Assembly: GCA_964187785.1 (NCBI GenBank)
Contig: OZ076409.1
Coordinates: 68,140,001-68,204,000 of the forward strand
Length of the DNA stretch: 64,000 nt
Direction: 5' to 3'
Source of the DNA: Amphiscolops sp. MND2022
Lineage: Eukaryota
The number at the start of each line of letters is the position of its first letter. The stretch's first letter is position 1. Under the pieces are notes generated by a model that had not been told where the DNA came from, made no database searches, and worked only from the letters and a program-made list of their open reading frames with translations. This document shows, piece by piece, positions 14,475 to 49,129 of this stretch. The translations under genes were made by a program, and so were the position numbers.

Positions 14475-17400
14475 TTTTTTCTATGGTGCCGCGACTAATG
14501 TGACGTTCCCTTTGGACCTTTTTAGCAGTTTGGAGCTGTCGTCCTCTGAAGTTTCGTCATCTACACTAACCCGGTGAGCCTGTTCCAAAAAAGCACGCTT
14601 CACGTGCGAAGGTTTTTTTGTTAGTGCAATTTGAGAAACCATGGTTCGGTTCAAGTGAAAAAAGTCATTATGTCGAAAAAACTGCTTCGAAGCCGGAACA
14701 TACTAAAAGACGAGCTCGAAGAGGCACAAGAAAGGCTCTTGTCCTATGTCAGGAGGGTTGGACGTTACGTTACGTTGAAAAACAATTGAAAACATGCAAA
14801 GAAATACTTTCAGAGACTGATGAGAAAATCCTTCAACTAATTGAAAGCGCTGAGCACTAATCCGAAAACGAACTATATCCGCAGTGGATTAGCAAAACTA
14901 GCGAAGAAAATGATGCATTTTGTGCTCAGGTTAGAAAATACTTGAAGCAGGGAAAATCACCCAGTGATACGCTCAGCAGCATAGTTAGAAAGTCAACAAA
15001 TTCCACAGCATCGTCTGAAAAACTCCGACTTGAAGCTAGCTTACGTCCACAAGAACTAGAACGACGAGCCGAAGAGAACTTTTGTCTTGCTAAAGCAACA
15101 ACTGACTCAGAGTTGATGCAATTGGAAGAAAAAAACCGACGGCAAGTAGCAGATGCAAAAATTCTTGAAGAGCTTTTCGACGAAACTATTTCTAAGAAGA
15201 AATCGAGTAGTACGTCATACGAATCGTCTACTCAGCGAACTGAAAAATGGGTAACTGAAGTTGCAGAAACATGTTTTCAACAACCAAGGATTGATACCGA
15301 AAGCAATCCAATCGTCACCGAAGCTGTTCATGTGAACGCTAACTCAGTCCCGGAAGATGTTCATAGAGTACGATCAGTTCTAATTAGTCAACCATTCTCC
15401 GTTGCTACGCAGTCTCAAGGTACTTTGCTTGATTTGGAACGGATCCAACTACACAAGGAATCCCACTTCGACTCTCAAGCGAATTCATTTCACGTTCAGA
15501 AACCCATCTCACTATTTGACGAAGCCCTCTCCAACGTGTCTCTTACAAAGAACAGTTTCAGCAGAATTACAGGAAACGAGTCTCTCGAAAACAACCAAAA
15601 GTCAACTCCATCACGTCAGCATACATCAATACGCGATAACAATGTTGACGACAGTCCCCAGACAAATGTCAGCGTAAGACCTGTCATCCACGAAAATCTT
15701 TGACTGCAGACTAACATACCAGAAAAGGTTGAAATCTTCAATCAGCAACCGACCAAAAGACCACCAACCGCTGTTCCAGAACCTCCCGCAACGCGTAATA
15801 CAGTTGAAGAAATTGTAGCAAGAAATCATGTTCATAACGTTTGGCCCTCAAAGGAGCTACCGAAGCATATAAACGTGTGCACCTCTCCTTCTTATAGCAA
15901 TTGTCAGCCGGTCTCTCAAAACGACATTGATCAACCGTCAAAAACAACTTGTGTTTCAAACCTGTTTGTGGCCCAACAGCCAATCCTATACAACACTTCT
16001 CATCAACATTTAGCCGCCTATCATTCCTTCCGACAAGAATCTGATCAGCCAATGGCTTACCAACCGTTAGGTTCTCATCAACCAGCCCTTGATATTCTGA
16101 CTTTCAACTCGAAACTTTCAGTTCCTTACCGACAAGAAGCTGATTGTATTTACCAAACCGCCCATCAGACACCAGTTGCACACCGTACACCGTCTAGTAA
16201 AGGAAGAACATCGCTCAAGCACCCATGCTAACAGTCACAACTCATGTGGTAACCCTACTACCATCTATCAACGCCCAGCTGTTTCTTACCGACCAGGAAC
16301 AGACAACCCCCACACGGTGCCGACAACTTAGCCGAACTTCTCGCTTTTGACAAGCGGGATCCATTGTCCGAATGGAAGTTAAGTTGCTTCGATGGAAACC
16401 CTGTGGATTGGCTCGAATGATTTGGCCAATTCAAAAGTGTCATCGATTTTTCTCACCTCTCCAACGATGTCAAATCAACCTAACTGAAAACGTAAGTTTC
16501 GGGGAAAGCTAAAGCCGCTATTCCATATTCGCCTACTGTGGAACAATGTACGAAGAAGCACTTCGAACCTTGCCACGGAAGTTTGGACAACCACAGGCAG
16601 TTGTGTCAGCATACTTGGAGAGACTTTCGAAATACCCGCTCGTGAAAACACATTCTTCGGAAAGCATCATAGACTTCGCTACAACGATGGGAAGTCTTGT
16701 TGGTGTTTTCAAATCTGTTGGATACGAAGCCAATTTGAACAGCACCAGCGTTTTGAATCAAGCTGAACTTCTGCCCAACCTCAAAGAAGCATGGTTATTG
16801 TTCACTGTCAAACAGTCTCTAGAGCGACCGTCACTTCAAGAGTTCAACACATGGCTTCAGCAAAAGGTCGAAGCGCATGATCGCATGCAGACTGTTCACT
16901 CTCAGTCATCGTCGTCGCCAATCTACAGCAAGCAGCCGAGCCAATTACCCCAGCAGCCGAAGATCAAATTCACCAAACGTTTCTCGTCATCCGCAAAAGA
17001 AAAAAAGAAAACAGCGAATATCACAAAAACATCTGTCCATGTGTTCAGGAGCTCATTTGCTGTATCGCTGCAGCAAATTCCGCAACCAAACTACAAACGA
17101 ACGCATCAGGTTCGCGGTTGAGAAAAATTTGTGTTTCTCATGTCTACAAGGAACGCATTCATTCCGCCAATGCCCTACAAAATACTCATGTCTAAAACAA
17201 GGATGCAAAAGCTCTCACAGTGTTTTGCTTCATGGGGCGGAACGCGTGTTCTCAAAGTCATCATCATCAGTACCACAGCTTCAAAACACAGCCGAATCTT
17301 CATCAAAGAACTCTACAATCGCAGCCGCAATAACTTGTAAAAATCTTCTGCAGTTAGCAGAGGTAAACATTGCGTATAAGGGTAGAACTCGAAGAGTCCT

Positions 17401-20400
17401 TGCGATGCTGGATTCTGGAAGTACCCATACTTGGATCGCCGAAAACATTGCCGAAGAACTTGGTCTGCCCGGAGAAGAGCAGAGCATTCGACTTTTCGGC
17501 ATCAACAACGAAAAGGACTCACCACCAAAACGCGTAGCTTTCAACGTCACCGCAGCACATCATAGTAACATACAACATTCCTCACATGAAGTCTACGCTT
17601 ACACAAAAGCCAACCTTAGCATTGGTAAGGTTTCATAAAAAGTCACATCCTTGAAGAAGACATATCAACAGCTAAACCTTTGCCAAACGTCGTCGTCAAC
17701 TACCAAGACGTTGTCCTACGTCTTGATCAAGATCCCTACGAGTGCATCCAACCACTTGAATACAGAGTCGGTCAGCCCAACCAACCTATCGCAGTGCGCA
17801 CAGCCCTTGGATGGGTCCTTGTGGTCATGTGTCCAATCAAGCTTTGAAAGAATGTTCCACCTTTAAAGTTGTCGCCACTAAGATCAACACCTAGCCAACC
17901 AGGTTCAACATTGGAGGGAACTAGAGTCATATGGTTCCAGCAAAACTGGTGACCCACAATCATTGGAAGATCAAAATGCCTTGAAGATTTTGGAAGCTAC
18001 AACATATCACGATGGAAGCTGCTTTGTCGTGGGAAAGTTGTGGTCTTCTGAAGCGTCCTCTTTGCCGATCAATTATTACTACGCCTTAGCACAGCTTCGA
18101 GCTTTGGAGAAACGCCTTGACCGGGACCCAGCACTGAAAGAAAGATATGCCAGCATAATCAAAGAAGACATACAGAAAGAATACGTGATAGAAGTACCAT
18201 CTGCAGAAATTTTTGGAACGTCTCTTCGTCAATGGTATTCACCCAACCAACCAGTACAACACCCGCTCAAACCGGACAATGTTCGTAGAGTACTAAATGG
18301 AGCGGTAAAGTTCTGCGATGTAACGCTAAACTCAACCCTTCTTTGTGGACCTGTTCTTCTTCAAAATTTGCTACAATTTTTTGTTAAGGTTTCGACAACA
18401 CCAATATGCCGTCTCAGCTGACATAGAGGAATTGTTTCTTCAAGAGGGTGTACCAGAAAAAAACCAACTGTCTTTACGATTCCTCTGGAGAGATACTCCT
18501 TCAAAAGTAATCAAAGTCTACCAGTACACACGTCACCTCTTTGGTGCAAAAGACAACCCAACTTGGACCAACTACGCCACGAACAGAACGGGCGTAGACA
18601 ATGCAGCCAAGTTTCCTGAATCAGCTCTCGCTGTGAAACAAAATTTCCACATGGATGACTACTTAGATTCGCGTCCAACTTTGAGTCACTAGAGAATGAT
18701 CTCATCCAACTCCTTTCAAATGGGGGCTTCAAGCTAATAATCAGCAATGCCCCACTGCTAGCAGACCGCCTCAACACTTTCGCCTATTCACATCACAACC
18801 GACAAACAAAATTGTCTTCTGCCAGCTCGATACAAAACAATTTAGGAAAACCCCAACAAACACGATTTCATCCCCACGACAGAGAACCAGCGAATCCACA
18901 CAACTTGGATCCTCTAAAGTATCTCATCCCAGTCCGAGATAACAAACTACTAGACCTAGTGCATTGAAAGTTAACGCAATGGAAAACATAATACCAGTAA
19001 AAAAAGATGTCATTTGGAGACGCAGTCCACACTTCACCGTCAGAAGCTGCACATGCCACGTGTCCCGAGTCTTCAAAAATCAAGCAATGCGAGGATTGTC
19101 CAAGTTTTGCCTCAATAGCATCACCTGGAACTCCAGCAAACCCATCCGTGCTTGGTTTCCGTTGGAATACCGATCAAGACACCCTGATTGTTAGTCGTGG
19201 AACTACTCCAGACTTGATCGGGAAGACAATTACGCAGCGACTTGTTCTTAGTACCGTATCTTCAGTTTTTGATTCCATCCGGACTAATTGCTCCGTTCGC
19301 CATAAGAGCCCTTCTACTCTTGAAACAACTCTGGAAGAGCACCGGTCAACAATGGGACGAAAAAAATCCCGAAGATTCACAATCAAAGTTCCTGGAATGG
19401 TGTTCTGAACTTGAGAACGTATCAAAAATTGCAGTACCTAGAGTCTTTTCCAGAAGCCGAACTGGCTGTACGAGCTTCATGTTTCTGGCGATGCGTCAGT
19501 TGAAGCCATCGCCGCATGCGCCTACCTTCGACAGCCAGACGGTAGGGCAGATAAAAGAAGCCAAACAGCTTTCATAATTGGAAAAATCCCAGTGGCCCCA
19601 ATGAAACTGCTAACTATTCCCAAACTTCAAGCCGCTTTGCTCGCATCACGTTTGAAACGTTTCGTCGAAGATTCACTAGTTATACCCATCAACAAAGTCA
19701 ATCTGTGGACCGACAGTACCACTGTTTGCCAATGCATTACAAAATCTGCTTCAAAACAACCAATTTTCATCACTAATCGCCTTTCAGAGATTCTAGAGCT
19801 CACAGCAATGGATCAATGGAAGTTTGTTCCTAGTAGCCTCAACCCTGCTGACTGTTCTACAGGGGTTTCCCTGCAAACTGTCGCATATCCCAACTCTCAG
19901 TTCCAAGCAAAATATGACCCATCTTCAGCGAAAACATGTTTGAAAGAATCAGAAGAAGAAAACGAAGAAGAAGAAAAAGAAGAAGAAGAAAGCCGACAAT
20001 CAGCAGCTACAATATCCAGACAAATAGTTTCCGCAGCCCTTCAATATAATTTTAGGCCACAAGTGATTCCTTCGAATCGTTTCAGCAACAACAATAAACT
20101 ACTACGAGTTTTTGCATACAATTTGTGCCTTCTCCAAAGTCATTTTGTGTTAAGACAAACTACTAAAATTTCACACCCTGAAGAATACCTAACTTCATTC
20201 TTTCTCTGAAGGAATCTTTTGCCGAAGAACTCAAACACCTACGGAGGAATCAAAATCTTCCGAGTCACTCGCCACGCGGAAACTACCCTTTGGCCCGGGT
20301 GTGCGAGGTTTACTCTGACAGCAAGGGAGTTGCAAGATCTGCCAAAATTATGACCAGGGAGGCAGTTTTGATGCGCCCTGTCAATAAATTGGCCAGATTG

Positions 20401-20429
20401 TGGAACGTCAACAACGCTACCCCCAAAGA

Positions 20430-20727
20430 CGTTAAAAGTGACTACCAAAATTCGCATGAATGAAAACTCATGAATGAAAACTCATCAATGGAAATTAGTG
20501 ACTTGAAACTCGAAATTGCTAAAAAAATTTCTTTAAACTGTTAAAAACCTTCTGATGTCTCTAAAATTTGATGGAATTCTTTTGTTACTCCGTTTTTCCT
20601 CTCACAGCAATGAAAACTGACCTAGATTTCAGAGACGAGTCAAACTACGTTGTGCTTTTTTGTTTGTTCCCTCAGACATCTGGGCCATTTCGGTAACCGG
20701 CCGTCAACTTGAATTAGCGAAACAGCA
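20430..20727 (+). repeat. BEL-1 3' LTR
   Basis: (C)GTTAAAAGTGAC...AACAGCA, homologous to 14168-14474. Confidence 0.85.
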
Positions 20728-23700
20728 TTTATACTTAGCATAGTGGATCAGTCTTTGCCATCGAACTGGTCTGCGCGAGTCCGAATCTGCGACACCGCTT
20801 CTTTTTGATTTGTTTGTTCCTGTATTACTGAACTGTGATATTGATCAATTATTTAAACTGACACTTAATCTTGTTTTCTCATTTATAACATTTAACGACC
20901 GTTGCTCTTTGTGTATACGTACAAATCTGTAAACAACGTGCATAGACTTTTTTGTTGTCCCCTCGGCTGTAAATGCCTAGTTTGCTAGTTACGAACCAGC
21001 TGATAACCAGTCCCCCATTCCTCAATTCCTTGATCATGTATCTTTCATTCATACCGTCGATAAACGTAATCAAACACAGGCCTCTCACTTTGAGGCAAGA
21101 TTCTTTTCTTTAGTCCGAATTTTCTATTGAATTCCCTCACTGTAGCTTGAGAGCTGGCCTGGAACATTGGTGACTTCGTCAACAGCAGATGGTTCAAGTG
21201 GTTCAGACGGTTCTGGTGCTGTGTTGAAGCTTTATCAGTTGGATTCATCGCGGCGAGCTCACTATACGGTTAACAGCAATCCAGCAAGCCGGTGGACTAC
21301 TCGAGGATGTCCAAGTAGAGTTGGAATTCCTAAATTATTGTCGCGATATGCTGTCTGAGTTGGATGCTCAGATACATTTCATTTAAGACGCGACGACATA
21401 GAGGTCGACGTGGAGGATGGTACTGGTGTGTTCTTGGCAGCAGAAAAAGAAGTGAAGTGAAGTCAGGGCATTATCAAAAGTTGCAGCCTCCAAGCACACA
21501 CAGAGCAGCGGCTCCAGCAAGTGGCAGTCTGGCCACAAAGCTCTCTAAGCTGACCCTTCCTTCATTCACTGGTGAATACACACAGTGGGTGTTTTTCTGG
21601 GACCACTTTTAACACTGGTTGACAGCAAAGTTCACATGGCCAACGGTGAGAAGCTATGGTACATCAAGGTTTCACTGAAGGGTGATGCAGCTCAGATAGT
21701 TTCTTCCCTGTTGGTCACTGGTGCAAACTACAACAAAGCGAAGCAAAAATTAGAAAGGAGCTTCAACAACAAGTGTTCAATTTTAAAGGCGCACTTAGCT
21801 GAAATTCATGCCCGACCAGTTGTAAAGAAGGAGTCAAATGTCGAGCTGCAGAAGATGCTGGAATCGACAAATGAACTTTTGGAAGAACTAGAAACTGTTG
21901 CCTGTCAATGGCCTTTTCGTGGCACTTGCAACGGGGGGCTTCATACTTCATTGCACTCTGAACGTCCGGCCGATCAGCAAAGTGGTGTGACGAGTTGGGC
22001 AACATTCGGTAGTCTTTATGTGCTTCTGTCAACAGCAATGGTTGGCATAGATGATACAGCTGGAAAAACACTGTTGTTTTGTGCCTCGCTGGATTCTGGG
22101 ACCCAAAACGTCCTTCATCACATTGGATGCTGCATCAAATCTCAACCTTGTTCGTTCAACAGTCGATGTGAAGATCTCTGAAACTGGTGAACAGCAACAA
22201 GTCGCAAAGGAAGGCTTCAAAAGTTGCCGGTTTCAGCACTTGTTCTGAAATCAATCGCCGGTAATGTTCCTTCTACGTCCTTCATGTTGAAACAATTGGA
22301 GACAATAAGAAGTGTAGCACTAGCAGACAAAAACTTTATTGAGACTGGCGCCGTTCAATTGTTTCTGGGACCGGATGCTTACGAGGATCTCAACGAGAGG
22401 AAGAAGGATCATGGGTTGCACTATTGCAATCTATCTTAGGCTGGGTCGTGACTGAAGTGATGTCCCATACGCGTGGCTGTCGATATCAACCCTTCCAAGT
22501 TGCAGTGTGGAACTGGACCTTGCTCGAGTCTGGGTAGTAGACGAGATTTCTCGAAAGAAGTCGATATTCAAAAAAATTGTCAGTGTGTGGAACATTACGA
22601 CACTACAACCTATGTTGCAGATGACGACAGCATCCCAGTTCGTCTCCCTTTATTTTTTGAGGTACGTCCCTCAACACAGAAAACAGCCAAGAAGAGATTC
22701 TTCGCTTTGGAACAAAAACTCAAGGATCGCAAGTTTGAGAAGCGGCAGTATCATGACTTCATCGAAAAATATTTGGATATGGGTCATCTGCAAGAAGCTC
22801 CTCAGACTTCAGGCTTACGTTACTACGTACCCCACTGTCAATACAAACCTTTGTGTCTAAATGTGTCTCTCAAACTCAGTCGATGTATCAACAACAGAAT
22901 TCATTCACGTACCGTCAGAGGAGATGGGGTTGCCAGTCGATCTGTGCTCACGTGAATAGCTAGCAATGGCTCAGCAGAAGTTCTACTTAAAATGACCATC
23001 GTGGTTAGGATCATCGTTTCCTGACCATTTTCACACTCCCCTCACAAACGAGGAAACCCGACAAGAAGTCAAATCCTTGATTTCAATTCAGCGTTCGAGA
23101 AAACTTTCGAGGCGATCTTTGGTCGGGAGGAAATGGCTTTCGCCTTCTATGCGATGGTCGAAGCAGATCATGTGGTGCACTTTGAAGCCGAGTTCCGAGC
23201 CCTCCGAAATGGTGAGTCCATCAACCCGAAGAACCCATTCATGGAAAACGGCGTCATCAGTGTCGGTGGCAGATTGATCCACTCAATGACTGAGGTACCC
23301 TTCACTGGTGTTGCACCGAAGCAAACAGACAACACCTGCAATCCACGATGCCCACAAGCGAAACCTTCATGTTGGTTCCACAGAAACCGTGGAAGAAATG
23401 AGACTTCCAATCTGGGTCACACTCTCAAGGAGAAGGCGTCAGCGTGCATCAAGAAGTGTGTCACGTGCTTCCGCTTCACTTCAGGTTCAACGCATCAGCT
23501 CATGGGTGACTTGCTGAGGCTCCCGAACCTGCTCTCTATTGTGTAGACCTTGACTTCGCCGGACCTCTAACTTTGAAAAAGGCAACTCAATGTTTCAAGG
23601 GTAACAAGGCTGTTTTTGTGTTTTTAATCCAAGGCTAATCATCTAGAGGCAGTTTCGTCACTGTTATAAGATGCAAGGGTTGCAGCGCTGAGACGATGCA

Positions 23701-35038: not shown

Positions 35039-36562
35039 CTCCTTTTGCAAGGCGACAATATGGCGGCGGACGTTTCGACGACAAAGAAAGTCGTTGAAAC
35101 GTCCGCGGCCATTTTGGCGCTCAGTCGACTGTCATCGAAAACTCCGGATTCCCACTTTTCGACACTTTTAAAAGTAACCTCCGTATCTGACCTGTTGATT
35201 TTGACCATTATTTTGCAAATGGGGGAATGGACCAATGACATTTTTACACGTTACGTTATTCTCGATTGGCACTTAACTGTTTCTTCTCCGAAATTAGTCC
35301 TCCTTGCCATGACGAAAAGTTCAATGGTATATATGCTCAACTGCCGCATCAGAATTAGATTTGAATATTTTAGACCACATCTAGTTAGTTGCGCATTTTT
35401 TTCTTCAGCTCCAAACTGGGCAAAAAAGATATTGAACGCCTAACAATTAACGAAGGCCAATAGAAATCAGTCCGGTCCGCTTTCGGTTTCTCTACATTCT
35501 CTCTGATTTTCCAAGTTTTGATGAAACCAAACGTCCTTTGTTTTTTTTCGACCTCGCGATTTTTCTGTTGAATTGTTTTTAACAAGCCGGGATCGGCATA
35601 AGTCGACGCCATATCTAAGGCTCAAAAATAGCAAAAAAACGTCAAAGTGTCAAGTGTTCTTTTGCAGTACCTGAAAGTTTCAAGTATTCTTTTACAGTAC
35701 GAATTGGCACGCCGGGAGCCTGCTAGCGGGCCCCCGGCGCGCTAGAAGGGGGGACCCTTCCGGATTTTTTTAAGAATCCATAATTGTCAAATATCGAAAA
35801 CTTGAAGGTGGGACCCTTTGGGTAAAAAAAATTCGAAAAAAATCCCTATGCCGAAAAAACTGAAAGGGGGGCCCTTTGGGTTTTTTAACATCTATGCTGT
35901 CGCAAAACATCAAAAAACTTGAAGGGACCCTTTGGCGAAAAAGATTGAAAAAAGTCTCAATGCCAAAAAAAACTGAAAGGGGGACCATTTAGTCTCCCCC
36001 GGTATTGTATGATACGCGGAAAAAGAGGAAAAACTTTTTGCTTTAGTTCGCTAGGCCAAATTGTTACACTTGCGATAAGCAAGTGTTATGGGAAAGTGCG
36101 GGTGCTTTTTTTCCCGCGCGACAACTCTCTCGTTTCAGACCGCAAGTCGCATAATTCAGACTTCTTTGATCTAGCGGTAAGATGCTTGCTTTTCAACCCA
36201 GAGGGTCCGGGTTCGAACCCGTGCCTATGCGCAATTTTTTTTACAAAATTTTCGAAGCAGAAGATTCTCACTTTTTTCGACAATATGAGACCCCCCCTCC
36301 CCCCTTTTCGGCTTTTTGAGACTTATTTTCGAAAATTTTTTAATGTCACGAAAGGGTCCTCCCTTCATTTTTTTTGATATTTTGCAACAGAACGAACGTT
36401 AAAAAATTCAAAAGGGTCTCTTCTTTCAGATATTTCAGCACTATGAGACTGTTGAAAATTCGCATTTTTCTCGAAAATTTTTCGAAGTCTCCAAATGGCC
36501 CCCCTTCAATTTTTTTGAAATATCGCAAAAGAATGGATGTTAAAAAATCTCAAAGAACCCCC

Positions 36563-36806
36563 TGTTGAGACTTTCTAAATTACTATGACACGTCACTTAA
36601 AAATGCTTCAAATTTAAATCAATCAATCAGAAACTGACAACCATGCAAGTCATGCGTGAAAACTTTGACTTTTAACTTCATTGTATCTTTCTTCATTTCT
36701 TGTTCACAAATCAATTGAATCAAGTTGTACTTCTTTTAAACTGATCATAATTGTTTAATCTCATCACGTAAGAATTGAACTTTCTTTTCTTATTCATCCA
36801 GCAACA
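36563..36806 (+). repeat. BEL-3 5' LTR
   Basis: TGTTGAGAC...CAGCAACA. Confidence 0.95.
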
Positions 36807-36847
36807 TATTGGTGCCGCGCCTACCCAGGAAAGGAAAACGTTTAAAA

Positions 36848-39800
36848 ATGTCAGAAGCTCTTATCAGATCTCGAAGCAGTCACCTTGGAACTGTCACCAG
36901 AGCAACAAATTCAGTCGCAGCAATGCTGCAAAGGTCCCCAGAAGAAATTTCGCTAGAAGAAGCATCTAAAATTGAAGCAGCTCTGGAGAGATGTGAAGAG
37001 CAAGAACAAAAGATTCACGACTTGGATCAGAGAATCAAAGACAAGTTAACAGAAGAAGAAGTTGAAGCAGCAATATTCGATAATGAGACAGAAAAGGTCG
37101 ACGAAAATCATCTCAAGGTTCGTTCGATTATCAAAACGATGAGAAAATTCCTTGAAAAGCTTACGTCTACATCAAACGATAACAGTACTGATGCAGTAAT
37201 CGTCAATAGCCGAAGCGGTGGCTCTGGACTCAAACTTCCAAAACTTAGTTTGCCGACTTTCAGTGGCAAATATGACGAGTGGACACCATTCTATGACCTG
37301 TTCATAGGGACAGTCGATACAAATAGCTCCTTATCGGACATCCAGAAGCTCCACTACCTCAAGTCATCCTTGCGTGACGAACCAGCGAAGTTACTAGCCC
37401 ATCTACCCATCACAAGTCAAAATTATGCAGTTGCAGTTCAACTTCTCAGAGACAATTATGCCAACAAACGCATGATCAGTCATACTCATTTACAATCAAT
37501 CTTCGAATTTCCTACTCTGAAATACGAATCGGCCGAGCAGCTACGTAAGTTAGTCAGTACTTATGTTGAAAACACGATGACTCTTCAAGCTATGAATCTA
37601 GATACGAGCCAATGCGATTTTATCTGGGTTTATACTATCGCAAAGAAGTTAGATCCTGAAACACGCAAACAATGGGAACTCTACAGTCCTGGCGATGATA
37701 TCCAGTCAATGCAGCAGATGAAGCGATTCCTGGAGAGAGCTCGAGCGTTGGAAGCGTCCTCGAGACAGCAACCAAAGGCAAATCAGGAGCGACGAGATGA
37801 CTCCCGACGACATCCCAACCCAAAACAGAATGCCTATCATGGGAATCTGAAAGCTGTTACCTGCTTGTGCTGTTCAGAGCCTCACAAAATCTACCAGTGT
37901 GAGAAATTCAAGGCCATGAGTTTCGATGACAAGCAACAGTTAGTAAAAGCCAAAAAATTATGTTATAATTGTCTACGTTCTGGACATACTGTCAAGGAGT
38001 GTAAGTCCGAATCCAAGTGTCAGACATGTAAAAAGGGTCACCATACGCTCCTACAAAGAGCTACGAATGACGGCGAAGAAGGTTCAGGCTCGAAACTCTT
38101 CGTGGGTCACTCGGGGATACTTTCTTCGCAGACCATCCTCCCTACAGTACTGGTTCCGATCTTCATTAACGAAGACAAATTCGTCGAATGCCGAGCTCTG
38201 TTGGATTCTGGAGCAGAATCTAGCTTCATGGGAGAGCAGTACTTGCAACGGTTAGGGCTACACCGAAGGAAAGCGACATTCGAGATAACAGGAATCGGAG
38301 GAGTCACAACCAATGCCAATCTTGGAACCGTAGATATCAAAATGCAAACGAAATCCAAAAGGTCAATCTACACAATTGCAGTGGTCATGAAAAAGCTTAC
38401 AGACCTTATTCCTAGTGTCACACCAAAGGCCAGTGATCTTCCTATTACTAATTCCTTGAAGTTATCAGATCCGAACTTTAGCCAGTCACGACATGTTGAC
38501 ATCATCCTCGGTGGTGAAGTCTACGAACAAATAGTTGGATATCGCAAAATCCAATTCTCTAAAACGCTCTATGCACGTGATACAGAATTCGGCTGGACTG
38601 TATGTGGCAGTCTAGGCTCCAAACCAGCACCCCGAATCCAAGCCTTCCGAGCATCAGTTGATTTTGATCTCGCACAGTTCTGGAAGCTCGAGGAGGTTCC
38701 GAAGTTCAACTCCTCGACCAAAAAAGAAATGGCGTGCGAAGATTTCTTCGTGAAAACTACAAAACTCGAGAATAATCGATTCATTGTAAAGCTACCCTTC
38801 AAGGAAAACAAGCCTCTTGGTGAATCTTACAGTCAAGCCGAGAGACGATATCTACTTCTCGAGAGGAAGTTGGACCAAAAGCCACTTCTCAAACTCCGAT
38901 ATAAAGCCTTCGTCGATGAATTCAAGGATCTGGAACATATGGAGCCAGTACCCTTGAAGGATCTTGCCAAGCCTTCAGACAAAACCTTCTACTTACCTCA
39001 TCACTGCGTATTCAAAGAAGACTCAACGACCACGAAGTTGAGAGTTGTCTTTGATGGATCTGCAAAAACTTCAACTGGAAATTCATTAAACGACAGTTTA
39101 ATGGTGGGAGCAACCGTGCAAGACGACCTCTTCTCGATCAGCATACGATTTCGAACGTATCCAGTAGCTCTCTCGGCAGACATCGCCAAGATGTACAGAC
39201 AAATCGAGATAGAAGAGAACGATCGCGACTTTCACAGAATTCTCTGGAGAGACGACAAAAACGAGCAACTACAACATCTGAGGATGAAGCGTGTAACCTA
39301 TGGTGTCGCATCTTCAGCCTTCCATTCAACTCGATGCTTAATCGAAGTAGCAAATCGAACAAAGAACAAAGAAGTTGAGCATCACCTCCGACACTCCTTT
39401 TATGTGGACGACTTCCTCGGAGGAGCAAACTCAATAGCAGAAGCCGAAACCCTGGTCAACAGCATGTGTCAGGAACTCGAGCTCCATGGATTTCCTATCA
39501 GAAAATGGTCTTCCAATCAACCTTCTATAGTGGACAAGCTTCCAAAAAATCTTCGAGAGACCACAGACAGCCTGCAGCTCTTCTCAGATGAGTACAAGGT
39601 GAAAACTTTAGGCATCTCATGGCAACCTAATCAGGATTACTTCTTCTTCAAATCTACAGTTGATCCGATCGACCACCAACGAAACGAAATCTCTTATCCT
39701 CAATAGCGAAGCTTTTTGACCCTATGGGTTTGTTAGCCCCGATAATCATCACCTACAAGTGTCTGATGCGTCAAGTCTGGCTCACTGGCGTTGGATGGGA

Positions 39801-41990
39801 CGACGAATTACCCAAGGATATATTGGCTCAGTGGCACGACCTCTTGAGTCAGATCTCTAATCTTGCAAAATTGAAGCTACCAAGAGCTTTGGCCAAAAAT
39901 TCTATCAAGGAACTCCAATTGCATATCTTCACAGATGCCTCAGAAATTGCTTATGCCGGAGTAATCTACTCCCGAACCGAAGACATCCTAGGATACATCT
40001 CTGTAAACCTCTTGACTTCAAAGACTAAGGTAGCACCAGTCAAAACTATTTCTATGCCAAAACTAGAACTCTGTGGTGCTCATCTTGGAACGAAACTGCT
40101 CAAATCTGTACGAAAGGTCCTTTCAGTAGCTCATTTCGATGCTCCGATTTATGCCTGGACCGACTCCACAATTGTGCTTCATTGGTTGGCGCAATTGCCT
40201 AGAACCTGGGCGACGTTCGTTGCTAATCGAGTCTCAGACATACAAGATTCTGTGCCTCGAGAAAACTGGAATCATGTTCCTACCAAGGACAACCCTGCGG
40301 ATCTAGCCTCGAGAGGAACTACAGTGCAGCAACTCGTGGATTCTCAGCTTTGGTGGACAGGACCTAGCTGGTTGGCGCAGGAATCGGACACTTGGCCCGA
40401 TCTCAAACCAGCGCATGTCGATCCTCCAGAGAAACGAGAACTTAAAGTTAAGGATTCGCTTGCAGCATTCACTATTGCAATTCAAACCCAACTAGAAATC
40501 GTTCCGATCGAAAAATACAGCAGCCTGCGAAAAATTATTCGAATCATGTGCTATGTACTTCAATTCGTGAAAGATTTACGAAAAAGTATAGACGAAACAG
40601 CCTTGGGTCCAAAGAACCGACGTTTGGCCAAATTTCATCTCGTTCAAATCGAACAACTAAAATACCTCTCAGAAGTCTATCTCACTCTCAGCGATAACGA
40701 GGAGCTCGATAAAGCCTCGAATCTTCGAAACTTGTCACCTTTCATGGACAAAGAATTCAACATTCTCAGAGTCGGTGGACGTCTGGGACAGTCATCATAC
40801 TCCGAGTCAAAGAAGTTTCCGGTGTTAGTTCCAAAAGAGTCAAAATTGGTTCATCTAATCATCGCACAATATCATGAAGTTACCATTCATGGTGGGGTGC
40901 AACTGACTCTAAATTCGATTCGAGAGCATTATTGGATCATCACAGGAAAGGTCTTGGTGAATCAATTCATCAGGAAATGCGTCAATTGTTTTCGATATTC
41001 AGCCAAAGCTCCAAGTCAATTAATGGCTGATCTCCCAGCGAACGAGTGACACCCGCACGACCATTCTCGCAAACGGGACTTGACTTCGCTGGACCCTTAC
41101 AACTCAAAGAAGGCAATGATGTCAAGAAAATCTATATTGCAGTTTTCGTTTGCCTAACGACAAAGGCAGTCCATCGCGAACTCGTATCTTCTTTAACGAA
41201 AGAAGATTGCATTTTTGCCTTAAAAAGGTTTGCAGCGAGGCGAGGAACCCCTAAAAAGATCCTTAGCGACAATGGAAAAAATTTCATCGGCGCACGAAAC
41301 GAGCTTCTTCAAGTTCGTGCGTTACTTAACAGTGACAAAAAAGAGAAATCTCTCGTCCAATTTGTGAACGAAAACGGAATCGAGTGGGTAACAATTCCAC
41401 CCCGCTCTCCGCACTTCGGTGGGCTATGGGAGGCAGCTGTGAAGAGCATGAAGAGACATTTGCGACGAGTAGTTGGTCTTCAAGTACTCCGATATGAAAA
41501 ATTGCTAACGACTTTGACACAATTCGAAGCAATTCTGAACTCAAGACCTCTCCACCCTCTCACCAATGATCCTAACGACAATGCCCCGCTCACGCCTTCG
41601 CACTTCCTGATTGGCGGAAGCCTGTTGGCTCTCCCAGAAGATGACATAGAAGTCACAACCAACATCAGACTCAAGCTGATGCAAAGGATCCAACAGGACT
41701 TTTGGAAGTCTTGGAAAAGAGACTATCTGACAACTCTTCAAATCAGGAAGCGATGGTTCACTAATGGACCTGAGTATAATGTGGGCGACCTAGTTCTCAT
41801 TGCAGAAGACAATGAGGCACCTCTTCAATGGAAAACTGGGCGAATAAAACAGATCTTCACTGGAAATGATGGAAATGTCCGGGTTGTGAAGGTGAAGACA
41901 AGTACTGGGGAGCTGATGCGACCCGTAGTCAAGCTCCGAAAACTCCCCATCGATGCAGGGAATGCTGTAGCACCCCAGCAAAGGTCATAA
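36848..41990 (+). pseudogene. BEL-3 Gag-Pol polyprotein with two single-base frameshifts (~39670, ~41045)
   Basis: LPTFSGKYDEW, three Cys/His knuckles, LLDSGA, YLPHHCV, ADIAKMY, FYVDD, DASE..KLEL..WTDS..NPAD, integrase DFAGP/SDNG/WEAAVK. The frameshifts could be real lesions or assembly errors. Confidence 0.93.
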
Positions 41991-42630
41991 TTACGATTAT
42001 CATTCATTATTCGCTTGTTATTCTTCATTTAGATGATTTTATGACTTGACTCAAAATCGCAAAAATTCTCCCCCAGTGACCGATTTCACTTCTGGAAAAT
42101 TAATTTGGTACTATACAACGGCCAAGACTCCCGGCATTTGGAATCTACCTGATTTGAGACTCTACGACGTTTATTTTCTTTGTTATTCAACAATATTCAA
42201 CGATCATGACTCAATTTCACTGATGTTAAGTCTATAAAATAGCAAAAATCTCAAGGATTTATTGAAATCAGCATAAACAGCATCATCAAGGTATCAGGAA
42301 CGAATACAAACTTCAATGATCAAAGAAAACAAACAGTTTAAAGAAGTATCACCATTTATCAGCAGCGACGTTCTCCAGTCACGGTATACTTCCTTGCCAA
42401 CATCTGTTGTTCAGCAGCGAATTCAGCATCAACTACTCGTTCGACAAAAATGAGTGAGCAAACTGTGCCCTCAGGGATTCCAGTCCATACCGAATGCAGA
42501 TAACCATATGGCCAGTACAGTGTACAACCTGGTTCAATGATACACCACGAAACTTGCCGAGCCGTTGTTTTCGAAAGTGATTGCAAGTAACGGATGGTGT
42601 CAGAAAAATTCGTTCGACGACATCTGGCTA

Positions 42631-42981
42631 GGGTGGGCGGAAATAGGTCGAAGGAACGGGATCGAAAATCAGAGTTAGTCCTCAGGTCGACATACCAAAT
42701 TTTTTGAATGGGATCGAAACAACTCGGATCGAAATTTTTAAAACGTAGTCAGATATGTTCACATACCCCTAGTGCCCTAAATGCAGGAGCGAAGCGAAGC
42801 GGATCGACGTGCCATTATGGCCATGCCTCAATGTTGCTACTTGGCGAAGGGAGCGAAGCGACCGAGCCATACAACAAATACGATAAAATTCGACCGCATT
42901 CCATTCGATCCCAGCAATTCGATCAAAAGGTTCGACCTCTGTCCTTTCGACCAGAAAAATTCGACCTGTTTACAGCCACCC
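42631..42981. mobile_element. Mutator-like MITE (GGTCGAA/TTCGACC arms, core A) inserted in the JmjC gene
   Basis: GGGTGG...CCACCC ends; 9-bp TSD ATCTGGCTA (42622-42630 / 42982-42990). Confidence 0.9.
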
Positions 42982-43528
42982 ATCTGGCTATTACATCTAG
43001 CTGTTTTCCTGTTGGTGAGGATTTGCAGAACAACCATAACTTCCTTCCATTCAAGAGGTTCATGATTGCGTGACCTTTTTCGAAAAGATCATGATGAAAT
43101 GGTCGAAAGCTACTATTCTCCACTAAGATTTGATCGCCTTTTCTCTCTTCCACCAACTCAACATTCTGAAGTGCTTTGTGTAATATAACTGGATTTTTCG
43201 AATTGCTTCCTGAAACCACTCTTGAAGAGTTTTCTACACAAAGACTCCGACAAGATACCCTGATGCCAATGATCTGGAATATCATCTAATGAAGACATAT
43301 TTCGCAGAATATCTTCATCATTCTCAGGCAACCAGATTGCCCTCTCCTGAATTATGGCCAACTCCAGTGCGCTCTAGGACTTCTGTGATTGTTTTCACGG
43401 GTACACAACTTAAATAAGATGTCTTCAGCCACGTGACAAATAAGTCCAGACTGGGAACCGCAGCAACTTCCTGATGTCTCCCTAATGTTCTGGGGTTGTT
43501 TTTTGTGAAATCGGGTACCCTTTTTGCC

Positions 43529-44072
43529 GGGAAATGGTCATTTCGCCTAATGCCATTTCGCCTAAAGTCATTTCGCCTAACGTGTTTGGTCACTTCGCCT
43601 AATTTTTTTTAGGCGAAACGTCTTTTACTTTGGTCACTTCGCCTAATTTTTTTTCAGAAACGTGAAAAACACATGAAATTGGAAAACAAATAAATCGTTT
43701 AAGATCTAAAACTAAAAAGTGATATAAAATAGAAAACGTGCCTCGGATATGTCCCATTCCTTCTAGTGCCCCGCGGCCCCTTGGGGCCGCTTATGTTCCA
43801 TCTTGCTAAGCGAGGTCGAACAGGAGCAAAGACCTAGCGGGAACGGAGATCGCGAAGCGATCGTAGTGGGAGCTGGTCTTTGCGACGGTGAGGGCGAGTG
43901 TGCATACACCGCATATGCCCCACATTTTGATATTTTTGCTTTCAGAAAGCCTTTTTCGAAACATGATTATTTAGACGTTATTCCCGTTTGGTCATTTCGC
44001 CTAATTTTTTTAGGCGAAATGACTCAACTAAATTTTTAGGCGAAATGGCATTAGGCGAAATGACCTGCATCC
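43529..44072. mobile_element. Mutator-like MITE (TCATTTCGCCTAA arms, core B) inserted in the JmjC gene
   Basis: Inverted motif arms; TSD TTTTTGCC (43521-43528 / 44073-44080). Confidence 0.9.
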
Positions 44073-44180
44073 TTTTTGCCCTTCCTGTCTCAGCTCTCTT
44101 CTGGTCACGAACAACAAATTCAGCACACATGCCTTATCTGGAAAGGAAAAACATTGAAGTCCCTTCAACGCGGGCGGCTA

Positions 44181-45054
44181 TTTTGAGACTTTCTAAATTA
44201 CTATGACACGTCACTTAGAAATGCTTCAAATTTAAATCAATCAATCAGAAACTGACAACCATGCAAGTCATGCGTGAAAACTTTGACTTTTAACTTCATT
44301 GTATCTTTTTTTAGTTCTTGTTCTTTGTGTACTGAGTGTCTTGCTATATGGTTCCCAAATATGGTACCCTTCATTGATTTACAGACGTAAATTGGAATTA
44401 TTCAACATGAAGTGCCTGAAATGGGTTACTGGTTTATCAAACTATCTTGAACAACTTGCTGCAACATACACACTTCCAATTTCTTTCTATCTTGTTTTCC
44501 AAGACATGCTTTTCCTTAATAAGACCATCCATGGCAAATATGACCTAAATATTAAAGACTTTATATGTTTTAGCCATCCTGCTAAAGATCTCAGAAGCTC
44601 CAAATTCATCCATCTTTCCCCAGTAAACCCCTGTCACAAATTCAAAACCCAGGAATCTTACTTCCAGAGAATCTGCTGCTACTCTAACTACCTATCAGCA
44701 ATCAATATTTCTGTCTTGGATAACTTCAACAGCTTCAGAAGGGACCTTTCTATTTACCTTCATAATCGAGTGTCTTCCTTTGATATAAATCGTTCTTGCA
44801 CTTGGTTTATTAAGTGCTCTTGTAGCATCTGTCGTGCTTGAAATTTTTTTTCACTTTTTACCCTGTAAAAGTCATTTATACCGCCTTTTAGAACATGCCT
44901 TTTAATACAAAGGGAATTAAGTCTTTCAGTAGTAGTAGTAGTAGTAGTAGTTCACAAATCAATTGAATCAAGTTGTACTTCTTTTAAACTGATCATAATT
45001 GTTTAATCTCATCACGTAAGAATTGAACTTTCTTTTCTTATTCATCCAGCAACA
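44181..45054 (+). repeat. BEL-3 3' LTR, interrupted by a LINE fragment
   Basis: 44181-44323 plus ~44950-45054 together match 36563-36806. Confidence 0.93.
44324..44950 (+). mobile_element. 5'-truncated CR1/L2-group LINE 3' end with (AGT)n tail
   Basis: Post-RT peptide VLSVLLYGSQIWYP...KLE, ending CTWFIKCSCSIC*; (AGT)n microsatellite tail at 44928-44950; absent from the 5' LTR. Confidence 0.85.
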
Positions 45055-47041
45055 CCCCCCTTTCACAGTTTTCGGCCTTGTGAGATTTTTCAAAAGTAAT
45101 AATTTTTGTCTTAAAGTTAGGTTTTCTCAGGCCCAGCACGCTATATCCGATTTTTTTTCAAAGACCGGTGTTTTTCATATGCGACTTTTTCAATTTTTTT
45201 TCATCGAAGTCCCCCCTCAATTTTTACCAAAAATGAAACGTTTTGCGACTCTAAAGGACTCGTCATGGTTTTCGGCACTATGCGACTTCAAAAAAATTGC
45301 CGGTGACCTTCAAAAAAATTTTTCCAAAAATATTTTGGAAAAATTTTTGAAAAAAAATTATAAAAAAAATTTTTCCTTCAATTTTCTGTTTGTTTTTAAG
45401 GATTTCCGTTGAGAAAGATGGGTTTTTTTTGCTGTTTTCAGTTGGGGAAGAATGGTTTTCGAGACTTATGCCCATCCCTTCGGGTATTTTTTGGCGCTGT
45501 AAAATTGATGAAATTTTAACATACTCCTTTTACCCTTGGTTCTACGTATGATATTGCTTATTTGGTTTTCAAAACTTCGCAAGTGTTTGTGAAGCACGGC
45601 TTCGCCTCTGTGTTCAATTTGGGACCATAAAATTTTGTATCACTTTGAACTATTTTGGTCAGTTCGTGTGGATTGAAAACAAAATTTTAAAAAATAAAAA
45701 AAGAGTCACTATAATAGTCTCGTTTCACTTCATGAAGCGCCGACTAAAAACATCCTCAGCGTATTAAGAAGACCGCTGTTTGAGCCTTGAGCGATGCGCC
45801 GAAGTCTCTTATACCTCGCAAGGGCCGTGTGCTCTTGAAGCCATAGATGTCAAGGTTTCTTGCTCTTTATAAGAAGCCGGTATAAAGGATAGTTGATTGC
45901 GCTGCAAGCTGCAGAGCCTCCTTACAGTGTCAATATACATTTTAAAATTGCGTTCACAAAATTGTTCAAGAACGGTAAATTGAAGGTATAGCAAAATCAC
46001 ACAATATTTCATCGCTGAGGTCAATTAGTTCGAGGAGAGCCTCCCCGCTTCAACCAGAAGTAAACGTAAATTTTGCCATATTCAGTTTGATCTTGCGTTA
46101 ACGATTCCTTTTTCAAAAATCATTTTCCAATAAAGTTTTCCTTCAAAAGTTAGTTTTTATTGATATTGTTTGCTTAGAATGTTAAGGGTTGTGTTTCGTC
46201 TGTCCTTGGTAAAACTATTTTTTGAAACAGTTCCTTCTAAACTTGTAGTTATCATAGGCCGTCAAACTTTGATATAGTTCGCGTTCTCTTGTTTTTTTTT
46301 GTTATTGTTTTTTCGCGTTTTCCCAGTGATTTGATGTTATTCTTCGGAAAATGCGATTCTATCGTGATGAGAAAATTTTATTTTTGGACCTACAAAAGCA
46401 CGATTTTCTGAAATGTTTCCAATGGGTCGAAAGTCTTCCAATCTGCCTAAAAAGTTTCATCTCAGACAGAAATTTTGTTTATCGTGCACTCTGATAGGTT
46501 AAATGTTAGAATCTTTTCATATTCAATATATCGACTGCCCCTTTATCGTGTATTGTAGAAGTTGTAGTCAGCTATTACACATACTCCTTGTGCAATACTA
46601 GTCCGACTTGGACGGGCGGAAAGCGCCGCGAGAGGAGGAACGCCGAGTTGTACAACCAGTATTTACTATATTGGCTCGTATAGCACTAAAATGCGATCTG
46701 AATTCTTCTGTTTGAGACCGATTTTCTAAACTCGGTTGTATGAAGTGAACGAAAATTGCGTCCTCTTACTTTCTCATTATTGTAAAGCTTTCATCAAAAG
46801 TTCGATCTTTCATCTCCTCTACTTTGAATAGCAAAGCCGACACGCTTTCAAGCAGTTAAAAACAACCGGACGAGTTTCGTTGTCTACGGCTTGGAAACGC
46901 GAATCTCAAGTTTCCATACCTGGAATAATGCATCGTACTCGTATGCTGACTCAGAAAAAGTTTTTTGGTAAAATGAAATATCTTACAATGTATTAATGAT
47001 CAATTAGGGAATACAAATCAAAAGTTTGGTTTTTGGAATCG

Positions 47042-49129
47042 TTATGCATGTTTTAATTTGTAGTAGGCTTCGATTTCGGCATCAAATATTTTCTTGGCTT
47101 CGTTGTAGAGCTTGCGGTCGTAATAAACTCGTTTTTCAATGGCTTCTCTCTGAGTGCTTGTGATTAAGCCCTTTTCGTAGTTCATGTTCACATTTGCTTT
47201 TATTTCTGGTTCCATGTTGAGTGACAGCATGAACTCGAGTAACTCTTCTGTCATCTTGAAGTTCTCCGTGATTCCAACTAAAGCAAACTTTTTGAGGTTC
47301 TTGAGAGCCTCTTCGTAATGGCTATCGTTTACGGCAATGATTTTTGTAACACCTTTGATATAAGTATCAGGGCCTCCGGAAAATGTAGAAAACAAATCCG
47401 GGTATTTGTCGAACTGGAACATTCGGATAGAATGGTTATCGAAGAATGGAATTTGTTTGTTTTGCGTCTTAACTAAAAAGTCATCCAAACTGGTGCTATC
47501 GAAGACATCCGTGAAAAGTTGATCGCCCAGAAGTTGGGGGTACTTTCCGTGTTTGATATATTGGTACATGGACACGAACCTCGTGACTGGGTCTCGCAAA
47601 ACAGTGACGTAATAACCAGCCTGAGGCACCATGCGATGCAAACCGAACGACCTCTTGTCAAGTGACATGAGTTTGACTTCTGGTTTACGTGTGGCATCTT
47701 TGTAAAAGTTGATCATGTTGGAACAGTAATAGCTGAGGATTACTTTATACTTTGGCTTCTGCATCTGAGCACTGCTTCCTCGCTATGGCCCAGGTGTATT
47801 GTATACCGTTTTCCGAGTTATGTGATGTTTTATATAACATGTCCAGTCGTAAATTTAAAAGGCCAGTCTTTAATCGTTTTTCTCTTGCGAAATGATTTAT
47901 TTTCGTATGTAAAAGTTAATGGTTTCTTGTCAGTCAAAATTGCGGTCTTAATTGTCTCAATTTTTTCCACCACTTTTTTCTTCAAAGAATCACATAATTT
48001 AATGTTTTCAATGTTTGGAGTAAAAACCATTCTTACGTTCAATGCATGATGGTATTATCTACTTTTGAATAACGATAATTTTTGATGAACGGTACACCAT
48101 ACAGTTTTGGGCACCAGTCTGCGCAGTGCCGTTTCCATTGAGGTGCCGCTAGATTTCATCACGTGCACGAAGTATATGTGGGCATGTCTGTATTTGGCTA
48201 CATTGGCCCGGAAGTCGTCTATAGTGTGATAAGATAAGTATGGATTGGGTAGCAAGAATGTTGTGTTGTCGGGCACGAAGCCAATGCACCTAAACAATAA
48301 TCCCATCGAAGTCTTTCATATATTTCATAATTTATTTTAGAAAAGTGTCTTAAAAGTGTGAACAATGTCGAGCTTTTATTGAAACTGCTAACTTTTACAA
48401 TTTGCCAATGGACCAACATTTGATGGTGGATTATTTATTTTGTTTATCGTGTATATATCCAATAACATGTGCTATTCGAGTTAAGAATTTAATCATTGTT
48501 GCAAGTTATGAAGATATGGAAAAAATTGTTATAATTTTGAATGGCTCACAAGGGGGTTCATGTGTATGAACTTCATGCATTTAATTTTATGCTGATTTTC
48601 AATGTTAATGTTGAATTGGTATGATTGTTGTTCAAAATTTCCAATCATGCTATTCACACATTTGTGGAGCTCTATTGATTTTCATTTTTATGCTGTTAAG
48701 GTATTATTAAAAATGGTGCCTATTTCTGTACCTGTTAAAAGACTCCATCATGGAGAGGCAGTAGCTGTGTTTGCCTTTGACTTCGCTTCTATCGAATGAA
48801 TGATGATATGACGTTTGTTGGATTTTCTTATTCAAGTCATCACATGACCATACTTTGGGCAAGTGCAAAACTTGGTCGTGTTCTGCTGAAACTGACCCCT
48901 CGTTTTCCTCAGGATAGTGCTCGGCTTCTATATCTTTGCCCCCGTCGCCGCCACTGTTGCTGATTTCAGCCTCATTGTCGAATGTTTTGAAGAGCACGAG
49001 GTAGGTGATAGAGGAAGCTATCCATATGAAGAAAAGTAACTTGACTGTCGTTTTCTGCGCGAATTTTCGCATGTTTAGCATCATAGTTTCCAGAGGTAAA
49101 CGTTTGACGGATGACTTGTCGGGGATCAT
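47042..49129 (-). CDS. Golgi type II membrane sulfotransferase (HS2ST / Gal3ST / Sulfotransfer_2-like), about 3 coding exons
   Basis: TM segment LLFFIWIASSITYLVLF; 5'-PSB IYFVHVMKSSGTS; 3'-PB YVTVLRDPVTRFVSMY. Exons ~49129-48732 and 48289-~48103 are joined by a phase-2 GT-AG intron. The last exon is ~47780-47042, and its acceptor is uncertain. Confidence 0.85.

Follow-up and report, generated by a model that had tools for sequence, protein, structure and literature searches.

We analysed a 64,000-nt stretch of contig OZ076409.1 from Amphiscolops sp. MND2022 (assembly GCA_964187785.1, positions 68,140,001 to 68,204,000 of the forward strand; genome size 1.07 Gb), referred to below as the window. 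A BEL/Pao long terminal repeat (LTR) retrotransposon spans 36563-45054 of the window and carries, on the minus strand at 42359-44130, a gene for a highly diverged JmjC protein, located between the integrase stop and the 3' LTR (Table 1). The window copy of this gene is broken by two miniature inverted-repeat transposable elements (MITEs) and by two frameshifts near 43368 and 43245, both within its middle piece.

The BEL/Pao element and its sister copies

In Pfam scans, gag-pol showed the BEL-type domain set and order (DUF1759, Asp protease, RVT_1, Peptidase_A17, rve and DUF5641). It is now spread across three frames, and the integrase frame stops at 41990. After subtraction of later insertions the element measures ~7 kb, which fits the size range of Belpaoviridae. 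These metazoan elements are described as having LTRs of 0.2-1.2 kb, a length of 4.2-10 kb, the order gag-protease-reverse transcriptase-RNase H-integrase and a primer-binding site that pairs with tRNA-Arg or tRNA-Gly (PMC8742986). The window element agrees with that description in LTR size, domain order and overall length, but the description lists gag, pol and sometimes env, and an antisense enzyme gene is absent from it. The stretch preceding the 3' LTR is G-rich but broken by pyrimidines, the family norm being a polypurine tract of ~10 nt.

A DNA search of the genome recovered two sister copies at 98-99%. Both lack either MITE and the 626-nt insert that splits the 3' LTR, so these three are later insertions. 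The insert, which we take to resemble the 3' end of a long interspersed nuclear element, gave no match in a Pfam scan; for each MITE, incomplete relatives occur in other parts of the window. The LTRs of the window copy and the two sisters differ at only 5, 1 and 3 positions per ~244 nt, indicating young insertions, and gag-pol is frameshifted in all three. One sister copy (protein P0001) retains a natural open JmjC frame of 287 codons; the other has a frameshift near the gene start. The window JmjC copy is dead, and the functional proposals below concern the family, not the window locus. All protein work was done on natural open frames from other copies, with no reconstruction across the breaks in the window copy.

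A first-pass annotation of the window, made from the sequence alone, had described the antisense pieces, their splitting by two MITEs and their status as element cargo. The pieces are present in the frames it quoted, the MITEs are genuine insertions with 10-bp duplications, and the gene lies within matched LTRs and a CCCCC duplication and is kept by the sister copies. Both frameshifts that it reported also exist, although it placed them near 43375 and 43196, the second ~50 nt off; its estimate of ~285 residues compares with the 287 codons of the open sister frame.

Table 1. Positions of the BEL/Pao element, its antisense JmjC gene and neighbouring reading frames in the window.
Feature	Position	Strand	Remark
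Left target-site duplication, CCCCC	36558..36562	.	each sister copy is flanked by a 5-bp duplication of its own
5' LTR, 244 nt, TG...CA	36563..36806	+	
Candidate primer-binding site, begins TGG, after 5' LTR	36810..36827	+	sequence
gag-pol: DUF1759, zinc knuckle, protease, reverse transcriptase, Peptidase_A17 (RNase H region), integrase, DUF5641	36848..41990	+	
Candidate polyadenylation signal AATAAA, ~100 nt past JmjC stop	42258..42263	-	same place in sister copy
JmjC gene, 3' piece: distal His H243 (codon 42496-42494) in H-S-V-W-T, plus stop	42359..42630	-	
MITE 2, 10-bp duplication	42631..42980	.	later insertion
JmjC gene, middle piece: H163 (43096-43094), D165 (43090-43088), K181 (43042-43040)	42981..43528	-	
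MITE 1, 31-nt perfect inverted repeat, 10-bp duplication	43529..44070	.	later insertion
JmjC gene, 5' piece, ATG at 44130	44071..44130	-	
Splice-acceptor-like TTCCAG, ends 7 nt upstream of ATG	44138..44143	-	
Candidate polypurine tract, G-rich, imperfect	44170..44180	+	sequence
3' LTR, first part; 5 mismatches vs 5' LTR over 143 nt	44181..44323	+	
626-nt insert splitting 3' LTR, (GTA)n tail	44324..44949	+	not in either sister copy
3' LTR, second part; 105 nt identical to 5' LTR	44950..45054	+	
Right target-site duplication, CCCCC	45055..45059	.	
Open reading frames after Gypsy pol at window start	5365-6507, 7437-7970, 8055-9443	-	
Open reading frame after Gypsy pol at window start	11009-12115	+	

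Identification of the antisense product as a JmjC protein

Searched alone, P0001 gave no Pfam match at E<=10, and its best PDB match in a single-sequence search was only NO66 (E ~1); single-sequence searches with two distant members returned nothing relevant. The JmjC assignment emerged only through profiles, relatives and fold. Three relatives (L047, L048 and L050) reached the cut-off of the Pfam JmjC model PF02373 with 25.3, 24.0 and 30.3 bits (cut-off 24), and the window subfamily gave no match; the JmjC_2 model was matched at E<=1 by 11 of 26 family members. The Atlas placed P0001 at 0.94 beside JmjC/Cupin_8 clusters, the nearest being unplaced JmjC/Cupin_8 proteins and not named KDMs.

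When 22 diverse members were aligned (mean identity 25%), the only invariant columns were H163, D165, K181, W183, P238 and H243, that is, the metal triad (H163, D165, H243), the 2-oxoglutarate (2OG) lysine K181 in strand 4 and two structural residues. The alignment omits L037, probably a decayed copy. H163, D165 and H243 align with the metal ligands of PHF8 and KDM7A. On the aligned sequences, the JmjC motif is not a chance occurrence.

AlphaFold models made with aligned relatives had pLDDT (predicted local distance difference test) scores of 86 for P0001, from a BEL element, and 84 for a Gypsy member, and showed the same double-stranded beta-helix fold. The best Foldseek matches were PHF2, KDM7A, PHF8 and JMJD5, the first three at the top. 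In the VIA structure ranking, JmjC proteins filled the whole of the top 14 for the BEL model (Z to 13.4) and the top 19 for the Gypsy model (Z to 13.8). The family proteins are stand-alone and about 260-300 residues long, and Pfam scans of members found no PHD, CxxC, F-box, LRR or other reader domain. C-terminal tails are strongly basic in 3 of 22 members (11-13 K+R per last 30 residues); the window subfamily is not among them.

The family thus described is almost certainly an element-maintained, catalytically competent Fe(II)/2OG JmjC oxygenase, with catalysis predicted from fold and residues. The metal and 2OG ligands of the JmjC signature first annotated proved invariant in all 22 relatives, and structure prediction, suggested as a check, returned the JmjC fold. 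In the suggested Pfam JmjC/Cupin_8 check, the window-subfamily protein gave no match and the three relatives named above reached the cut-off.

Distribution among BEL and Gypsy elements

Searching the genome in six frames yielded at least 148 matches, in 136 of 328 scored candidates. A BEL integrase lay on the opposite strand, tail-to-tail with the JmjC gene, at all 30 excised loci (two being the window itself) and at 5/5 more distant loci. Among eight loci found through a remote relative, six had this layout; of the other two, one had BEL gag and reverse transcriptase pieces and one had nothing. Five still more distant loci comprised two BEL, one Gypsy and two in a family confirmed as Gypsy at one locus by a longer fetch. 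In total, the BEL subfamilies with the antisense JmjC gene number at least 14, and two Gypsy families have it as well. In one BEL family (L066:790-2271, 7868-9347), the antisense JmjC open reading frame (ORF) lies inside both 1.48-kb LTRs, which are 98.5% identical. The first-pass annotation had found a real gene in the window but missed this scale: many BEL subfamilies, Gypsy elements and another assembly.

For the database proteins P0005 and P0034 the best matches in this genome were only 51% and 42%, and a third, P0032, had no match in this genome at E<=1e-12. Of three matches in other public contigs, two had this BEL arrangement, their DNA being 65-73% identical to loci of this genome. Given these diverged proteins and this layout, the trait is probably not confined to this assembly. 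A word search of 5.8 billion proteins yielded only close kin, and none of 27 pattern matches in IMG/VR was confirmed. L065, a candidate from a metagenome scan, was rejected as a chance bacterial match.

Some loci had further features. Many paired matches ~7 kb apart look like the L066 family with JmjC inside its LTRs. Tandem element copies, with an LTR in common or otherwise duplicated head-to-tail, were seen at L010/L011, L012/L013 and L038/L039. The JmjC-bearing Gypsy family has a Macro-like domain after the integrase (L046:1-1038, L047:2639-3601, L067; Pfam Macro E 0.006, under the cut-off), which may be another enzyme directed against host defence.

Selection, inheritance and origin

Nine subfamilies were compared through local alignments of natural open frames, with frameshifted or stop-containing copies left out. 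Across the 36 between-subfamily pairs, synonymous sites were saturated (proportion of differences, pS, 0.66-0.84), the nonsynonymous proportion (pN) was 0.31-0.52, and identity by codon position followed the order 2 > 1 > 3 in every pair. For JmjC and integrase sequences from the same 13 loci (13 subfamilies, with broken copies again left out), divergence was correlated (Mantel rho 0.825, p 0.0001). The trees largely match: both contain the groups ABC, EFGH and KL, and subfamily D is placed differently. The saturated synonymous sites, together with the JmjC/integrase congruence, indicate that the JmjC gene is cargo of long standing, subject to purifying selection as the elements replicate. Weighing against this, omega within subfamilies was 0.27-1.29 (17 pairs), which is near neutral; such values are as expected if most differences arose after insertion. 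An intact ORF in one sister copy, with long-term purifying selection between subfamilies and not neutral decay, is the outcome of the sister-copy check proposed with the first annotation.

In a JmjC tree including host genes, all 15 LTR-type rows were separated from the 5 non-LTR rows, with support of only 83/91 and long branches. A BEL-only clade was not rejected (p-AU 0.23, approximately unbiased test), and the tree does not show which lineage donated the gene or which way it passed between BEL and Gypsy. Those host JmjC genes that were examined resembled the element JmjC only remotely. An old LTR retrotransposon lineage captured a JmjC gene and keeps it as a separate accessory gene opposite gag-pol, between the integrase and the 3' LTR. 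Accessory genes may move between BEL and Gypsy elements.

Introns and the putative antisense mRNA

In the split families, the frame is broken by A+T-rich GT...AG gaps of 67-114 nt in 6/6 examined, five of them at one homologous place and the sixth elsewhere; subfamilies A-C are without such gaps. In 16 of 17 family representatives a TTYCAG motif is found no more than 16 nt upstream of the ATG, compared with 19 of 2160 window ATGs, a count that is partly circular because the ATGs of distant families were picked by inspection after the motif had been noticed. The splice acceptor first annotated at 44138-44139 belongs to this motif, which ends 7 nt before the ATG, not 8 as given. Subfamily B has a further in-frame ATG 18 codons upstream. 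The distance between the ATG and the CAACA that marks the LTR edge is 40-56 nt in subfamilies A-H.

Antisense introns survive retrotransposition, that is, reverse transcription of the genomic RNA, because they are on the opposite strand. Such introns make sense only with a spliced antisense mRNA, to which the conserved acceptor points as well, and the JmjC protein is probably made from its own such mRNA, with a start inside the 3' LTR or past it. Position makes a promoter in this LTR plausible; alternatively, the antisense mRNA could receive a trans-spliced leader, TTTCAG being a trans-splice acceptor. Among public RNA data, two runs (one seawater sample, one study) contained a small share of the stretch. 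Their few contigs, at a depth of ~3, covered the 5' part of JmjC, the LTR and the gag start and were unstranded, which is evidence neither way. The sole joint in them was a 1021-nt skip without splice ends. The arrangement shows how an intron-bearing gene can ride in a retroelement.

What the enzyme may act on

Animal retrotransposons are silenced largely via histone methylation. Judging from sequences and models, there is about an even chance that the family enzyme is a histone demethylase acting against this silencing. With its intact H-x-D...K...H site, this stand-alone protein of some 280-300 residues would oxidatively remove repressive histone methyl marks of the KDM7 type (H3K9me1/2, with H3K27 as a further KDM7 target); removal would loosen silencing, and the element would be transcribed. 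Because a reader domain is absent, the enzyme would presumably either have a broad range of action or depend on a partner to bring it to its sites. H3K9me2/me1, a repressive mark, is the target of PHF2/KDM7 enzymes (PMC10769511).

Profile searches point in this direction. KDM7A (E 1.4e-8), PHF8 (2e-8) and ceKDM7 (5e-8) came first, then PHF2, followed by JMJD6 (5e-4), KDM2A (0.014) and NO66 (0.03); the KDM7 group topped two further profile searches too. The residue four places after the distal His is Thr in 15 of 22 members, Ser in 5, Ile in 2 and Asn in none. Table 1 of a JmjC survey (PMC2938197) gives Thr in place of Asn here as characteristic of KDM2/PHF2, with which the 15 members agree.

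Several observations weigh against a histone demethylase. The VIA Z scores of the BEL model were 13.4 for both FIH (root-mean-square deviation 4.0, 212 aligned) and PHF2 (4.4, 218), 13.0 for KDM2A and 12.9 for JMJD5; those of the Gypsy model were 13.8 for PHF2, 13.6 for JMJD5 and 13.3 for FIH. With identities of only 8-16%, the modelled structure does not tell demethylases and hydroxylases apart. Reader domains, treated in the consulted part of PMC2938197 as a mark of histone demethylases, were not found in family members by Pfam (PHD, CxxC or other). PHF8 and KDM7A differ at the invariant Trp column after the Lys (W183), which the host JMJD4-like gene shares, and at the column of the KDM7 Thr preceding H-x-D, 16 of 22 members have Arg (Arg160). 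In hhalign, the host JMJD4-like protein (94.8%) came slightly above a KDM2/7-like one (92.1%), whereas hmmsearch reversed the order (25 bits vs 31 and 38). As a control, the host JMJD4-like protein itself scored PHF8 at 33 bits, against 37 for the family. In the absence of reader fusions, the family is not a KDM2/7 member in the strict sense, and its enzyme would work like a JmjC enzyme of either the KDM2/7 or the hydroxylase type. The sequences give a modest lean to the KDM2/KDM7 type. The first-pass annotation had left function between an anti-silencing demethylase and a hydroxylase; both still stand, the lean coming from the profiles and the Thr after the distal His.

A serious possibility, though short of an even chance, is an active JmjC oxygenase whose target is not a histone methyl-lysine, as with JMJD4, JMJD5, JMJD6, FIH and TYW5. 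It could hydroxylate or demethylate host proteins or RNAs, such as a factor in translation, splicing or a small-RNA pathway, or methyl-arginine marks, or else the element's own Gag/Pol. A small stand-alone JmjC protein without a reader domain suits this reading, as do the invariant G-x-K-x-W, the fold tie with FIH and JMJD5, the position of JMJD6 directly after the KDM7 group and the lack of a named KDM among the nearest Atlas clusters. The FIH/JMJD5/TYW5 clade is itself marked by a clade-specific insert and by a conserved Asn where strand 3 begins. However, the Asn of the JMJD4/JMJD6 H-x-x-x-N in strand 7 occurs in 0 of 22 members, while the host JMJD4-like gene has it; JMJD6 scored ~14 bits under KDM7A, whereas a true JMJD4/6-type protein ranks JMJD6 far on top; and FIH, JMJD5 and TYW5 were not in the profile lists at E<=0.1. 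Even with a non-histone target, this would still be a new deep JmjC family, and it would point to a host restriction step not yet known.

It is improbable that the JmjC fold serves mainly for binding or as a decoy, countering silencing through competition for methylated histones or their readers, with catalysis secondary, a role that has been argued for fission-yeast Epe1. The substrate-side columns do diverge from KDM7, and one member examined, L037, is without the distal His, but metal ligands and 2OG Lys invariant in 22/22 sequences at 25% mean identity (L037 omitted) are hard to explain without catalysis. Very unlikely, finally, is a passenger, a piece of host gene picked up once with no benefit to the element: many copies are broken (stops in many genome matches, and the window copy) and omega is near 1 between close copies, but the sequence comparisons largely refute it through selection, invariant residues and co-inheritance, given that open frames and catalytic residues are kept across subfamilies despite saturated synonymous sites, that JmjC is congruent with integrase, that the gene is present in two retrotransposon superfamilies and that the resemblance to the examined host JmjC genes is remote.

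Because the enzyme is small, has a single domain and occurs in many intact natural variants, the family makes the question of whether a retrotransposon can erase its own silencing marks directly testable biochemically.

Other JmjC genes in the genome

Two other multicopy repeats carry a clear KDM2/KDM7-type JmjC gene (L051:2220-2840 (-), L052, L053:978-1595 (+); flanks L059-L062). This gene matched KDM2A in the PDB at E 2e-18, exceeded the Pfam JmjC cut-off and apparently has several exons. The repeats have dozens of near-identical genome matches, and both families share neighbours, a BRCT-domain ORF and unassigned ORFs, with no adjoining BEL/Gypsy pol. No inverted ends were present in the flanks fetched. 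The repeats are probably a large DNA-type element and represent an independent demethylase capture. They make a chromatin arms race in this genome more plausible and have no bearing on the substrate of the retrotransposon enzyme. A host JMJD4-like JmjC gene forms one long open frame at L057:320-1294 (-), with a second partial copy at L058.

A wider reading, which we put forward only tentatively, would be that BEL/Pao and Ty3/Gypsy elements of animals share an ancient, horizontally exchanged histone demethylase that they encode themselves, that is expressed from a spliced, possibly trans-spliced, antisense mRNA and that removes repressive methyl marks from chromatin, the second, KDM2/7-type capture reflecting a genome-wide arms race over histone methylation.

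Relation to known systems

A literature search, with Repbase Reports, subscription journals and supplements outside its scope, found no JmjC-bearing LTR retrotransposon, in line with the first-pass statement that no BEL element with JmjC cargo was known; nor did it find an element-encoded eraser of histone methyl marks for animal retrotransposons. In the text searched, the BEL/Pao survey PMC3118150 gives gag, pol and env only, with no occurrence of JmjC; the giant-transposon review PMC6431247 has no JmjC, and the JmjC survey PMC2938197 no occurrence of 'transpos'. The family is apparently undescribed, although transposons that carry modifiers of epigenetic marks are a theme already known. It is notably set apart by its JmjC class, its presence in animal LTR elements of two superfamilies, and its antisense, intron-bearing gene.

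According to the parts of these sources consulted, three transposon systems are comparable. Ty3/Gypsy elements of the orchid Phalaenopsis have an ORF for an AlkB-type demethylase of N6-methyladenosine in RNA (PMC9289625). They too are LTR retrotransposons with an extra 2OG/Fe(II) dioxygenase ORF proposed to counter host control, but the orchid AlkB is a recent capture near plant host enzymes with activity shown, whereas the JmjC gene is old, very diverged, in animal BEL/Pao and Gypsy elements, and of predicted activity. Fungal DNA transposons encode TET/JBP dioxygenases, no retrotransposon with TET/JBP having been found (PMC12730594, which also cites SET-domain HarbingerS/MuDR and Vandal anti-silencing factors). 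These are likewise epigenetic modifiers with an H-x-D...H triad, common to unrelated transposon lineages in one genome; they differ in belonging to DNA transposons and DNA methylation, and JmjC does not occur in the searched text. LTR elements of bdelloid rotifers have an enzymatic ORF3 (GDSL esterase, DEDDy exonuclease) across retroelement types (PMC5408684). As here, an enzymatic ORF downstream of pol forms a separate spliced unit common to retroelement groups in an animal, but the enzymes differ, and the searched text again has no occurrence of JmjC.

Among JmjC proteins, KDM7A/PHF8/PHF2 and KDM2A resemble the family as its best profile and Foldseek matches, in H-x-D, Lys and His, and in the Thr after the distal His. 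They differ in sequence (10-16% identity), in having PHD, CxxC, F-box or LRR domains, and in lacking the Trp after the Lys and the Arg that replaces Thr before H-x-D in most BEL members. ORF11 and ORF13 of LbFV are JmjC genes of a large DNA virus, captured from its wasp host according to the consulted part of PMC5381508. Both cases involve JmjC carried by an animal selfish element with a proposed effect on host chromatin, but LbFV is a double-stranded DNA virus with larger proteins and clear host homologues, and the fold match here is weak (E 8e-4).

Other features of the window

The window starts with a Gypsy element (pol 227-5179) followed by long ORFs without a Pfam match, three of them antisense (Table 1). 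One has a WWCRVC zinc-finger-like motif, and these ORFs are possibly further accessory genes. A sulfotransferase-like ORF lies at 47042-47782 (-) (Pfam Gal-3-O-sulfotransferase E 2e-5, under the cut-off), and other decayed BEL/Pao pieces (DUF1759, protease, Peptidase_A17) occupy 14861-23546.

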